Source: a virus. From it: a stretch of 64,000 bases of DNA. Where the stretch lies: the IMG/VR virus record IMGVR_UViG_3300042305_001483, one strand, 5' to 3'. The notes under the pieces were generated by a model. It did not search any database, had not been told where the DNA came from, and saw only the letters and a program-made list of their open reading frames with translations. The first letter of the stretch is position 1; each line of letters starts with the position of its first letter. This document shows positions 6,021 to 50,711 of the stretch, in pieces. The translations under genes were made by a program, and so were the position numbers.

Positions 6021-6057
6021 GTTCTTTGAGTAAATATCTTACTCAAGGAACTTTTTT
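6021..6057 (+). terminator. hairpin plus U-tract (likely clpP terminator) containing a TAAATA late promoter and the downstream SD
   Basis: gttctttgagtaa (6021-33) / ttactcaaggaac (6039-51), then T6; TAAATA at 6031-36. Confidence 0.7.
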
Positions 6058-46988: not shown

Positions 46989-47089
46989 TTAGATTATTAA
47001 AATCACTTTTCCAAAAGTGGAGACAAAAAAAGCAATTAAAACAAAGAATTAAAGAATTGCGAAAAAGAGATCCATTTATCTATAAATGA
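46985..47089 (+). CDS. 34-aa basic protein (…KRDPFIYK)
   Basis: ATGA overlaps on both sides. Confidence 0.6.
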   Translation: MIRLLKSLFQKWRQKKQLKQRIKELRKRDPFIYK

Positions 47090-47961
47090 AAATTTTTGGA
47101 ATTAACGCACTCAATCACGACACAAGTATATGCGTGTTCGATAAAGACATACTTTTTCATAAAAAATCAAAAAACAGTCTTTATTTAACTAATGATCTTG
47201 TGGAAGAAGCAAAGAAATTTGGAAATCCAGATGTGATTGCGTGGTACGAAAACCCTTGGCTTAAAAAAACAAGACAGATCTATGCCGGTCAATTTAAAGA
47301 TGCATTATCTTTTAAAAATTTGCCGTCTGTATATCTAAAACAATTTAATTTAAATTCAATTCCTATTTTTTATGCACCCCATCATCTAAGTCATGCACAT
47401 TTTGGTGTTTATTCTAGCGGTTTTGATAATACGGCTGTACTAGTAGTAGATGCTATCGGAGAGTGGAATACTGTCAGCATTTGGAATTACAGTTATGGAA
47501 ATTTTGAACGTGTTATGGTTAAAAACTACCCATATAGTTTAGGTTTATTTTATTCAGCATTTACAGAGTTAATTGGATTAAAACCAGTTCGAGATGAATC
47601 TGTATTAATGAATATAAGTCAAAAAGGAAATCCTTGGATTTACCACGATAAAGTTAAATCTTATTTAGATAAAAATTTGCATAAAGGAATATGGGATTGG
47701 GACGTTAACACAAGTAATAGCAACGATACAATTAATATTGCGGCTTCGGTTCAGTTTGTGTTCGAGAAAGAAATTATTAAATTAGCCAATATTGCAAGGC
47801 AGTATAGTAATAAACTTGTATTTACTGGAGGTTGTGCGTATAATAAATTTGTACACAACAAAATTAAGATTTTATTCAAAGATTTTCATGTGCCAAATTT
47901 TCCCGGTGATGCCGGTTCTAGTATAGGTGCCGCTTTATATATCAGCAAAAAAATTCTATAA
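47086..47961 (+). CDS. carbamoyltransferase (NodU/CmcH) N-terminal domain only
   Basis: HDTS, HHLSHA, VDAIGE, SLGLFYS, GGCAYN, GDAGSSIGAA; lacks C-terminal domain. Confidence 0.85.
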   Translation: MKIFGINALNHDTSICVFDKDILFHKKSKNSLYLTNDLVEEAKKFGNPDVIAWYENPWLKKTRQIYAGQFKDALSFKNLPSVYLKQFNLNSIPIFYAPHHLSHAHFGVYSSGFDNTAVLVVDAIGEWNTVSIWNYSYGNFERVMVKNYPYSLGLFYSAFTELIGLKPVRDESVLMNISQKGNPWIYHDKVKSYLDKNLHKGIWDWDVNTSNSNDTINIAASVQFVFEKEIIKLANIARQYSNKLVFTGGCAYNKFVHNKIKILFKDFHVPNFPGDAGSSIGAALYISKKIL

Positions 47962-47976
47962 TAAATAATTTTGTTC

Positions 47977-48029
47977 AAGGTTAGCGAGCCATAATTCGCA
48001 TTATTAAGGTTAACCGGCCATAAACGGTA
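47977..48029 (+). promoter_or_regulatory. tandem structured RNA element in the DNA polymerase leader
   Basis: AAGGTTA-GCGA-GCCATAAT-TCGC-A and AAGGTTA-ACCG-GCCATAAA-CGGT-A; second copy abuts AGGAG. Confidence 0.7.
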
Positions 48030-48038
48030 GGAGAAAAA

Positions 48039-50711
48039 ATGAGTTACGTTGATGCTATCTGGGATAGAGAAAAGGACACCGTTTTTGTTGTTGAACGAGA
48101 CAATAAGAAAGGCAGAATTTATCAAGAATATCCTGCAAGATATATTTTTTATTACCCCGATACAAAAGGGAAACACCGATCAATATACGGAGAAAGTCTA
48201 AGTCGTGTATTGTGCAAGAATTACAAAGACTTTCAAAAAGAACAACGAGTTTATAGCAATCATAAACTTTTTGAACATGACATTAATCCAATCTTTAGAA
48301 CATTAGAAGAAAACTATTTAGGTCGAGATGCACCAAAATTACATGCAGCATTTTTTGACATCGAAGTAGATTTTGATCCCGAAAGAGGATACGCTAGTCC
48401 AGATGATGCATTTATGCCAATAACGGCAATTACTGTATGTCTTCAATGGCTTGATGTCTTAGTAACACTAGCAGTTCCACCAAAAACACTAACTATCAGT
48501 CAAGCAACCGAATTAGTTAAAGACTTCCCCAACACTCACTTGTTCGAAACTGAAGGTGAAATGTTAGAAATGTTCTTACAATTAATTGAAGATGCAGATG
48601 TGTTAAGCGGATGGAACAGCGAAGGTTTTGATATTCCTTATACTGTTAATAGAGTTGCAAAAGTTTTAAGTAAAGACGACACTAGAAGTTTCTGCTTATG
48701 GAATAAGTTTCCTAAAAAGCGTGAATATGAAAAATTTGGTAAAGCCGCAACTACTTACGACTTAGTCGGTCGTGTACATATGGACAGTCTCGAACTATAT
48801 CGCAAGTATACATATGAAGAACGACATAGTTATAGATTAGATGCTATCGCTGAATACGAATTAGGTGAAACTAAAACAGTTTACGAAGGAACCCTAGATC
48901 AGTTATATAACAATGACTTTCGAAAGTTTATAGAATATAACAGACAGGACGTTTCTCTGTTAGATAAACTAGATAAAAAATTAAAATTTTTAGATCTAGC
49001 CAATACAATTGCACACGAAAATACAGTTTTGCTACAAACAACACTCGGGGCTGTTGCTGTCACTGAACAGGCTATTATTAATGAATCACATCAGAGAGGA
49101 TTGATTGTTCCTAGCAGATCAAACAGAGACGAATTAGGAGATACACAAGCCGCAGGTGCATATGTTGCATACCCTAAAAAAGGTCTTCACGACTGGATAG
49201 GATCAATGGACATTAACAGTCTATACCCTTCAGTAATTCGTGCGTTAAACATGGGTCCAGAAACTATTGTAGGACAATTAAGACCTGTAAAAACTGATCA
49301 ATTTATACATGAGCAAATGAATTTGCATAAAAAATCGTTTGCAGCAGCATGGGAAGGTATGTTTGGTACATTTGAGTATGAGGCTGTCATGCGGCAAGAT
49401 CGAGCATTTGAAATTACGTTAGATTTAGAAAACGGAGAGACTCATATTTTAAGTGCGGCTCAAGTTTATCAACTTATTTTTGAAAATAATAAGCCATGGA
49501 TGTTAAGTGCTAACGGAACAATTTTTAGTTACGAAAACGAAGGTATTATTCCCGGATTGCTAAAAAGATGGTATTCAGAACGTAAAGAGTTACAGGCTAA
49601 ATTAAAGGAAGCAATTAAAGCCGAAAATAAAATTGAAGAAGAATATTGGGATAAAAGACAACTAGTTAAAAAGATTAATCTAAACAGTTTATACGGAGCC
49701 ATTCTTAATGTCGGATGTAGATTTTTTGATAAAAGAATTGGTCAGAGCACTACGTTAACTGGAAGACAAATTGCCAAGCACATGGCTAGCAAAATTAATG
49801 AAGTAATTACTGGAGAATACGATCACACTGGAAAGAGCATCATTTATGGTGATACTGACTCTGCTTACTTCAGTGCATACAGTACATTAAAAATTGACAT
49901 TCAGAAAAACTTAGTCCCCTGGGATAAAGATATTGTTATTCAACTTTATAACACTATTGCAGAAACAGTTAATGCCACTTTTCCTCATTTTATGCAAGAT
50001 TCATTTCATTGTCCAAAATCTAGAGGAGAAGTAATTAAAGCAGGTAGAGAAATTGTTGCCAGTAAAGGCCTCTTTATTACAAAGAAAAGGTATGCTGTTC
50101 TTTATTACGACAAAGAAGGTAAAAGACTAGACGTCGACGGTAAACCTGGTAAAATTAAAGCAATGGGATTAGACTTAAAACGTGCAGATACTCCAGAATT
50201 TATGCAGATATTTTTAGAAGAAATTTTAACCAAGGTACTAAACGGTGCTCAAGAAAAAGAAATATTGGAGAGAATTAGTGAGTTCAGAACAGAATTTAAA
50301 ACTCGCCCAGGATGGGAAAAAGGTTCGCCCAAACGAGCCAACAACATTACAGAATACGAAGATAAAGAGAAGAAGGCTGGCAAGGCAAATATGCCTGGTC
50401 ATGTCCGAGCAAGTATTAATTGGAATACGCTCCGTAAGATGAATGGTGACAAATATTCTATAGGAATCGTTGATGGAATGAAAGTCATCGTCTGCAAAAT
50501 GAAAGATAATCCCCTAGGATTTACCAGTGTTGCATATCCTGTAGACGAACTTAGACTACCTAAATGGTTTCAAGAATTACCGTTTGATCATGCAGAAATG
50601 GAAGCCACAATTATTAACAACAAATTAGACAACCTAATTGGTGTTTTAGAGTGGGACCTAAACTCAACTAAAGATGATAATATGTTCGGAAAATTGTTTT
50701 CCTTTAATTAA
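48039..50711 (+). CDS. family B DNA polymerase (T4 gp43-like)
   Basis: DIEVD exonuclease motif, DINSLYPS, KINLNSLYG, YGDTDS, KKRY; C-terminal LFSF clamp-binding-like tail. Confidence 0.97.
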   Translation: MSYVDAIWDREKDTVFVVERDNKKGRIYQEYPARYIFYYPDTKGKHRSIYGESLSRVLCKNYKDFQKEQRVYSNHKLFEHDINPIFRTLEENYLGRDAPKLHAAFFDIEVDFDPERGYASPDDAFMPITAITVCLQWLDVLVTLAVPPKTLTISQATELVKDFPNTHLFETEGEMLEMFLQLIEDADVLSGWNSEGFDIPYTVNRVAKVLSKDDTRSFCLWNKFPKKREYEKFGKAATTYDLVGRVHMDSLELYRKYTYEERHSYRLDAIAEYELGETKTVYEGTLDQLYNNDFRKFIEYNRQDVSLLDKLDKKLKFLDLANTIAHENTVLLQTTLGAVAVTEQAIINESHQRGLIVPSRSNRDELGDTQAAGAYVAYPKKGLHDWIGSMDINSLYPSVIRALNMGPETIVGQLRPVKTDQFIHEQMNLHKKSFAAAWEGMFGTFEYEAVMRQDRAFEITLDLENGETHILSAAQVYQLIFENNKPWMLSANGTIFSYENEGIIPGLLKRWYSERKELQAKLKEAIKAENKIEEEYWDKRQLVKKINLNSLYGAILNVGCRFFDKRIGQSTTLTGRQIAKHMASKINEVITGEYDHTGKSIIYGDTDSAYFSAYSTLKIDIQKNLVPWDKDIVIQLYNTIAETVNATFPHFMQDSFHCPKSRGEVIKAGREIVASKGLFITKKRYAVLYYDKEGKRLDVDGKPGKIKAMGLDLKRADTPEFMQIFLEEILTKVLNGAQEKEILERISEFRTEFKTRPGWEKGSPKRANNITEYEDKEKKAGKANMPGHVRASINWNTLRKMNGDKYSIGIVDGMKVIVCKMKDNPLGFTSVAYPVDELRLPKWFQELPFDHAEMEATIINNKLDNLIGVLEWDLNSTKDDNMFGKLFSFN

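Follow-up and report, generated by a model that had tools for sequence, protein, structure and literature searches.

In the virus record IMGVR_UViG_3300042305_001483 of the IMG/VR database, the DNA polymerase gene polB is preceded by two similar 24-nucleotide (nt) units, the second of which ends at the Shine-Dalgarno (SD) sequence. The locus raises the question of whether the polB leader folds into a specific RNA structure and what such a structure does for the gene. The region analyzed, hereafter the window, is a 64,000-nt stretch of a 125.5-kb record. Because this record is estimated to be only 35% complete, the source, an uncultured lake phage, is large. Comparison with related leaders identifies the polB leader as an undescribed conserved element of the polymerase message, which by analogy with other phage leaders would serve in the control of that message.

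All features described here lie on the plus strand of the window. Unit 1 (47977-48000) reads AAGGUUA-GCGA-GCCAUAAU-UCGC-A and is sequentially composed of AA, a GGU triplet (47979-47981), a linker (47982-47983), the 5' stem strand GCGA (47984-47987), the loop GCCAUAAU (47988-47995), the 3' stem strand UCGC (47996-47999), and a final A (48000). An A/U-rich spacer (48001-48005), which is variable in length and unconserved in sequence among relatives, connects it to unit 2 (48006-48029; AAGGUUA-ACCG-GCCAUAAA-CGGU-A). Unit 2 has the same organization, with AA, GGU (48008-48010), linker (48011-48012), 5' stem strand ACCG (48013-48016), loop GCCAUAAA (48017-48024), 3' stem strand CGGU (48025-48028), and final A (48029). 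The two units start 29 nt apart and agree in their flanks (AAGGUUA ... A) and in all but one of the eight loop bases (GCCAUAA). Three of the four stem pairs differ between GCGA/UCGC and ACCG/CGGU, and both stems are still paired. A48029 is the last base of unit 2 and also the first base of the SD sequence AGGAG (48029-48033), which adjoins the 3' stem of unit 2. On reading the sequence, the unit coordinates and sequences, the 29-nt spacing, the three differing stem pairs, and the AGGAG junction given in the initial annotation are exact.

The repeat within this one genome is by itself weak evidence. The full 24-nt pattern is found in the window only at the two leader sites, and with three mismatches allowed it is found at four sites, compared with 3.6 expected by chance. 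In the window, the half-motifs GCCATAA and AAGGTTA are no more frequent than expected by chance, and this rules out a dispersed repeat family. The two hairpins stand out beyond chance because both recur with compensatory changes in relatives. The initial annotation had read the two stems as covariation within a single genome; they do differ yet pair, but this is weak on its own, and the real evidence comes from the relatives.

Relatives were taken from a metagenome scan that yielded 495 relatives, of which the best 80 were kept (apparently mostly lake samples), from eight IMG/VR contigs at 80-84% identity, and from further IMG/VR sets down to 71% identity and beyond. Of the 89 leaders obtained first (77 distinct), 88 have both units right before the polB SD. 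Without structural guidance, MAFFT aligned 76 related leaders (A2), and this alignment was scored for two helices of 5 base pairs (bp). The helix cells are paired in 91.7% of cases, compared with 63.3% in shuffles, none of which reaches the observed value in 500 trials, and sliding the partner strand by 1-3 columns leaves at most 35% paired. Double compensatory changes are present in 10/10 pairs, five of five in each helix, and the covariation score is 0.814 vs 0.294. Without a supplied structure, RNAalifold also recovers the two hairpins, with 8/8 pairs compensated. G.U pairs are frequent in helix 2, which marks the folded molecule as the plus-strand RNA. A binding site at the DNA level is rejected, as the stems covary and the G.U pairs would become A-C mismatches in the opposite strand. 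A search with a covariance model derived from A2 (R1) gave a single match, at the polB leader, in 99 of 100 related loci; the 470 kb searched contained no other match. The two hairpins are a conserved RNA structure with abundant covariation. Conservation in relatives, on which the initial annotation had made its proposal depend, is found in more than 200 related leaders that keep the element.

Each unit follows the consensus (A)-A-G-G-Y (Y, pyrimidine), a stretch of 5-9 nt made up of a 0-3-nt linker and the 5' stem strand, the loop, and the 3' stem strand. The linker between GGY and the stem is unconserved in sequence. The stem contains 4-7 bp, and the loop, R-C-C-N-N-A-A-N (R, purine; N, any base), is 8 nt and rarely 9 nt long. 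The AA at loop positions 6-7 is invariant. The loop consensus is G-C-C-A-Y-A-A-N in unit 1 and G-C-C-N-N-A-A-R in unit 2. The period from GGY to GGY ranges from 26 to 32 nt in the 76 leaders, and because of this variable spacing the units look like independent modules. In relatives, the SD lies 0-5 nt after the minimal stem of unit 2, and a longer stem 2 takes the first 1-3 bases of AAGGAG.

The conserved GGY and the loop RCC may pair with each other to form a compact H-type pseudoknot. The GG and CC of this predicted helix are practically invariant and for that reason cannot show covariation. The variable linker puts GGY out of register in a MAFFT alignment (A3) and in an alignment based on the covariance model (A4), and a formal pseudoknot count on A4 carries 21-23 out-of-register rows. 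The variants were instead counted by a purpose-written parser over approximately 280 distinct units. The third pair is U.G in 239 units, C-G in 28, and U-A in 6, and the U-A cases, with loop ACC, always occur with GGU and never with GGC. One leader (L130) combines AGU with GCU, a double change that preserves the first pair, and another (L177) has U-U, one clear mismatch.

In addition, the pyrimidine of GGY in unit 1 co-varies with the last base of the loop. GGC is found with G in 16 of 21 cases, and the usual partner of GGU is A or U. A tree built from the neighboring polB coding DNA shows 17 changes of the pyrimidine, and in 16 phylogenetically independent pairs the last loop base changes in the same direction in about 8 and in the opposite direction in 0 (sign test, median p 0.008). 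A base triple at the helix junction would give this pattern, since an H-type knot without a second loop puts the last loop base beside the Y-R pair. The same signal would arise from a protein that reads both positions together. The GGU/GCC pairing proposed in the initial annotation is compatible with nearly all variants, and the junction position co-evolves; the pseudoknot is moderately supported by this comparison, not proven.

The element is tied exclusively to polB loci. A descriptor combining GGY, spacing, loop, and a stem of at least 4 bp finds, in the phage's own 125.5 kb, the two polB units and two further matches at chance level (1.6 expected), and in a related 221-kb record the two polB units and five poor matches (2.9 expected). 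A pattern of one unit followed by GGAG was also scanned over IMG/VR. Among 80 readable loci, all 54 that bear a stem are at polB loci, and the 26 stemless loci look like chance. A loose pattern without the stem occurs in related records at or below the control frequency. The element stays with polB though the upstream gene differs. In total, 228 distinct leaders were obtained, of which 211 are directly before polB (148 tandem and 63 single-unit) and 17 are before another gene.

Among named phages, the closest are Sinorhizobium phage Phosso, with 52% polB identity, Atu_ph07, and Rak2-like phages. The motif is absent from the polB leaders of Phosso, Atu_ph07, and Vibrio phage 2.275.O, and a blastn search against GenBank phages gave matches in the polB coding sequence only, so that within this search and the three leaders read the element is not found in cultured phages. 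Two polB relatives, L135 (1200-1503) and L263 (1100-1206), are missing the element and have either lost it or never had it. At L135, an upstream membrane-protein gene runs straight into the polB SD. In eight other relatives (L162, L167, L168, L171, L151, L164, L284, and L326), polB starts right after the element with TTG, not ATG.

The 5' side of the leader is also conserved. In the window, a promoter-like TAAATA box (47962-47967), similar to the core of T4 late promoters, lies directly 3' of the stop codon of the upstream gene (47959-47961). Of the 76 related leaders, 70 contain TAAATA. The box precedes the unit-1 GGY by 11 nt in 47 of them, and in most leaders it is followed by nnTnT-GAG-n-A-A-GGY. 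The box noted at 47962 ahead of unit 1 is thus a conserved feature and promoter-like in the window. Non-coding sequence makes up 6% of the window but holds 18 of its 39 plus-strand TAAATA copies, a strong enrichment; most of these 18 precede a gene start by 10-50 nt, and the boxes look like T4-late-type promoters of the phage. Examples are located at 6031, 24867, 28216, 38042, 42408, 50740, and 62531. A late-type box before a DNA polymerase gene is itself a notable arrangement. The polB leader, with 77 nt, has one of the longest distances from TAAATA to a start codon in the window. By analogy with T4 late promoters, transcription would start about 5 nt after the box, and the message would then begin almost directly with unit 1.

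The gene downstream of the leader (48039-50711, ATG at 48039) encodes a family-B, T4 gp43-like DNA polymerase of 890 residues. Its open reading frame (ORF) matches Pfam DNA_pol_B (2e-36) and an exonuclease domain (1.4e-17). It shares 25% identity with T4 gp43 over 689 residues (E 2e-55) and by these matches is a distant homolog of gp43. The upstream ORF (47086-47961) encodes 291 residues with an N-terminal carbamoyltransferase-like region (phrog_1601). In most relatives, the leader is preceded by a different gene, whose product ends in ...GLIRML. Given this usual neighbor, the carbamoyltransferase-like gene looks like a local insertion.

What, then, might the element do? A structured RNA that serves one gene, sits at the 5' end of the message, and abuts the SD would best fit a gene-specific translational operator. 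The closest parallel is the operator of T4 gene 43: the element is confined to polB loci and, as in T4, hairpins with 8-nt loops stand beside the SD. On this analogy we infer that the leader acts on translation and that the polymerase would be its effector. We tentatively favor, at somewhat less than even chance, an autogenous translational operator bound by the polymerase, as for T4 gp43. Transcription would begin just after the TAAATA box, and the 5' end of the message would fold into two independent mini H-type pseudoknots. Each unit would consist of a free-sequence stem of 4-7 bp and an 8-nt loop whose RCC pairs with the GGY located 5-9 nt upstream, and the A-rich remainder of the loop, N-N-A-A-N, would pack against the short GGY/RCC helix. 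As unit 2 ends at the SD, surplus DNA polymerase bound to the units could block access of the 30S subunit to the adjacent SD. The polymerase would thereby repress its own translation and that of inserted, translationally coupled genes.

Several observations weigh against autogenous control by the polymerase. The folding energy of the window leader is unremarkable in single-sequence folding (z = -0.42), and its minimum-energy fold is a structure other than the two hairpins; single-sequence thermodynamics alone would have missed the element. The loop GCCAUAAR has just a UAA core in common with the loops AAUAACUC of T4 and RB69 and GUAAAU of RB49. Every conserved base can be explained by the fold itself, so that a bound protein need not strictly be assumed. 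Pseudoknot formation is reported to be absent from the T4 operator, and autoregulation is lacking in some polymerases related to that of T4 (PMC3014915). The evidence for a pseudoknot in the present leader weakens the autogenous reading.

Two further objections come from the natural variants. In a distant polB clade, only a single unit abuts the SD, and unit 1 is replaced by an unrelated conserved hairpin, which would be odd if both units bound one protein. For 17 of the 228 leaders, the SD that adjoins the element is that of a different gene, and control of polB in these cases would need translational coupling.

The replacement hairpin of the distant clade is found at L252:500-620, L232:515-635, L259:515-635, L266:1100-1206, and L235:1100-1206. 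It is composed of ACGCC, an internal loop, an inner stem, GGC, and AUG (ACGCC ... GGCAUG), and is followed by UAGAAAGGU and the single unit GCCAUAAG. The inner stem varies and remains paired in the leaders read, with GCC/GGC, AGC/GCU, and GGCA/UGCC observed. Where one unit alone is present, unit 2 is the one that persists, and the SD-proximal unit is therefore the core of the element.

At the loci examined among the 17 leaders, the other gene lies between the leader and polB. These intervening genes encode a 2OG-Fe(II) oxygenase (PF13759), an unrelated 204-residue ORF, an HNH endonuclease, and a 61-residue ORF. Beyond these loci, an ORF of no assigned family stands behind the leader at L275. 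The SD lies 0-5 nt behind unit 2 even where another gene is inserted. The PF13759 oxygenase ORFs (L252:584-1204 and L232:599-1204) end in ATGA overlapping the polB start, as does the 61-residue ORF of L077. These overlaps suggest translational coupling with polB. The L077 ORF, which belongs to no known family, is situated between a tandem element and polB (L077:351-603). In other lineages, the inserted gene, likewise of about 200 residues (L170:874-1488 and L203:574-1188), is the ORF unrelated to the oxygenase, which has no Pfam match. An HNH homing-endonuclease gene separates the leader from polB at L277:3330-3995, and also in L327. The L277 gene opens with TTG-AGT-TAT, which are the first three codons of polB (M-S-Y), and polB restarts about 610 nt downstream. 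With its start reusing polB codons and polB restarting further on, the endonuclease gene has captured the polB leader and SD. The repeated capture of the SD by 2OG oxygenases and an HNH endonuclease indicates that insertions land behind the polB translation start.

The alternative that survives best is a structural element that works independently of any protein, either by protecting the 5' end from decay or by insulating or presenting the SD in the manner of a standby site or enhancer, with the polymerase held at a fixed level. We consider it possible, though on the doubtful side. The element begins about 5 nt after the expected transcription start, 11 nt from TAAATA, and its conserved bases are all explained by the pseudoknot and triple fold. 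A generic 5' structure would be expected to be exchangeable for another hairpin, as unit 1 is in the distant clade, and unrelated inserted genes retain the element together with its SD. No anti-SD sequence or alternative switching fold is visible in the leader. Simple protective hairpins, however, need no invariant loops or precise fold maintained over more than 200 leaders, and the strict abutment of the SD, at 0-5 nt, suggests control of initiation. The element is also carried by polB alone, whereas short, unstructured leaders are found at the remaining TAAATA-driven genes of the window, and no further copy is found in the 125-kb and 221-kb records.

A different trans-acting protein could bind the same operator, such as an RNA-binding regulator of the phage or a host factor, for example ribosomal protein S1. 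Structure and position favor such a protein as much as they favor the polymerase, and two similar units spaced 26-32 nt apart would suit a dimer or two monomers. Phages are known to encode general translational repressors, such as T4 RegA (PMC3014915), but a general regulator should have several targets, and one site per genome is found here. No candidate binding protein is consistently co-located with the leader, the upstream neighbors of which vary. We regard a protein other than the polymerase as an unlikely effector.

A riboswitch is less probable still. In such a leader, one or two tiny pseudoknot aptamers would sense a nucleotide, a deoxynucleoside triphosphate (dNTP), or a 7-deazapurine precursor and gate translation by stabilizing the helix adjacent to the SD. 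The topology resembles that of preQ1-I, with an H-type knot, an A-rich third loop, and a last helix that touches the SD, and tandem mini-hairpin riboswitches exist, as in guanidine-II. The switch of the junction pyrimidine between U and C together with a loop base is also consistent with a ligand site. Against this, the unit is only about 25 nt long, has no spare conserved unpaired bases to build a pocket, and contains an unconserved linker where the helix is crossed. It occurs at polB loci only, whereas riboswitch classes normally serve several genes. A QueD-family match is present in the phage's 125.5-kb record and in a related record, but this link to deazaguanine is one of mere proximity and does not discriminate, since QueD occurs in both long records and TGT Pfam in neither.

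Rfam provides no support for a riboswitch either. The Rfam 15 covariance models gave no match at the gathering threshold in the 64-kb window, so that the database comparison proposed in the initial annotation has been made and leaves the leader without a family. With E values up to 10, neither preQ1-I (RF00522) nor any other riboswitch is matched in 47900-48100; the noise at E <= 10 comprises a snoRNA, a cyano-S1 leader (E 0.87), and a preQ1-II hit (E 8.3) that is driven by the SD. The most specific form of the proposal, in which every unit (about 25 nt) would act on its own as a ligand-sensing pseudoknot and read a nucleotide or 7-deazapurine-related metabolite at the junction of Y and the last loop base, is a long shot. 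If it were true, the unit would be the smallest natural riboswitch aptamer, and the polymerase would be made only when the building blocks for (modified) DNA are available.

The remaining candidates are readily dismissed. A terminator or attenuator is rejected because neither hairpin is followed by a U-run, and ToxI-like type III antitoxin repeats, which are near-identical and accompanied by an endoribonuclease toxin, are rejected because the units differ in their stems, polB lies downstream, and a single-unit form exists. A search of the window for tRNA and tmRNA genes found none.

A literature search found no description of this polB-leader motif. The element represents a new RNA motif. Its general type, a structured operator in the 5' leader of a phage replication gene, is known; its architecture is unusual, and comparative evidence supports it very strongly. 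Autogenous control by the polymerase, if it applies here, would extend the idea of polymerase autocontrol to uncultured phages that form a very large group in lake and other metagenomes. The 228 distinct natural variants, together with the tertiary covariation signal, make the element well suited as a model of minimal pseudoknot and triple folds. Regardless of which effector is involved, be it the polymerase, another protein, a metabolite, or none, the element is a ready-made new RNA family for Rfam, and it marks the start of polB and of its transcription unit in metagenomic phage contigs.

Several known RNA elements resemble the polB leader in part. The preQ1-I (RF00522), SAM-II, and SAM-V riboswitches are, like the predicted fold of the unit, compact H-type pseudoknots in which an A-rich loop runs along a short helix and the 3' helix touches the SD. 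In the polB leader, the conserved helix is the 3-bp GGY/RCC helix and the variable helix is on the 3' side, the reverse of preQ1-I. The unit also lacks an unpaired conserved pocket base, has about 25 nt compared with 34 nt, and serves a single gene. Membership in preQ1-I is rejected, as the RF00522 model is unmatched. The guanidine-II (mini-ykkC) riboswitch shares the tandem arrangement of small hairpins upstream of the SD, with conserved loops and variable stems and linker. Its loops are ACGR tetraloops, unlike the 8-nt GCCAUAAR loops described here, and the leader loops are not mutually complementary and also exist in a single-unit form. Membership in guanidine-II is rejected on account of the 8-nt loops and the lack of an Rfam match.

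The T4 gene 32 leader contains a small pseudoknot that functions in autogenous translational control (PMC3014915). This element and, as predicted, the polB leader are small H-type pseudoknots at the 5' end of the message of a replication gene in a T4-type phage. The gene 32 knot lies at a considerable distance from the SD and seeds cooperative binding over an unstructured stretch, whereas the knots predicted here are in tandem, abut the SD, and precede the gene for the polymerase.

To our knowledge, T4, RB69, and RB49 are the only phages in which the autogenous control of a replicative DNA polymerase via its mRNA has been examined. In T4, the gene 43 operator forms a hairpin of 5 bp, capped by the 8-nt loop AAUAACUC and located 8 nt before the SD, and the RB49 operator is a hairpin with the loop GUAAAU that overlaps the SD. 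Like the element described here, these operators are located in the 5' leader of a gp43-family polymerase gene and serve that gene alone. Further common features are a short stem, of 4-7 bp here and 5 bp in T4, and an 8-nt, UAA-rich loop near the SD. The loops themselves differ. G-C-C-A-Y-A-A-N is found here, compared with AAUAACUC in T4 and RB69, with the core UAAC, and UAAA in RB49, and only UAA(A) is shared with the leader loop, in another register. The RB49 operator loop holds UAAA, and in these operators the AC/AA bases on the 3' side of the loop matter for binding (PMC3014915). The invariant AA at loop positions 6-7 of the polB units favors the analogy. In contrast to these operators, the polB leader mostly contains two units, has its SD 0-5 nt away rather than 8 nt as in T4, and combines a putative pseudoknot between GGY and the loop with a late-type TAAATA box in front. 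The uncultured phages may employ a different RNA solution from that of T4, built from one or two mini-pseudoknots.

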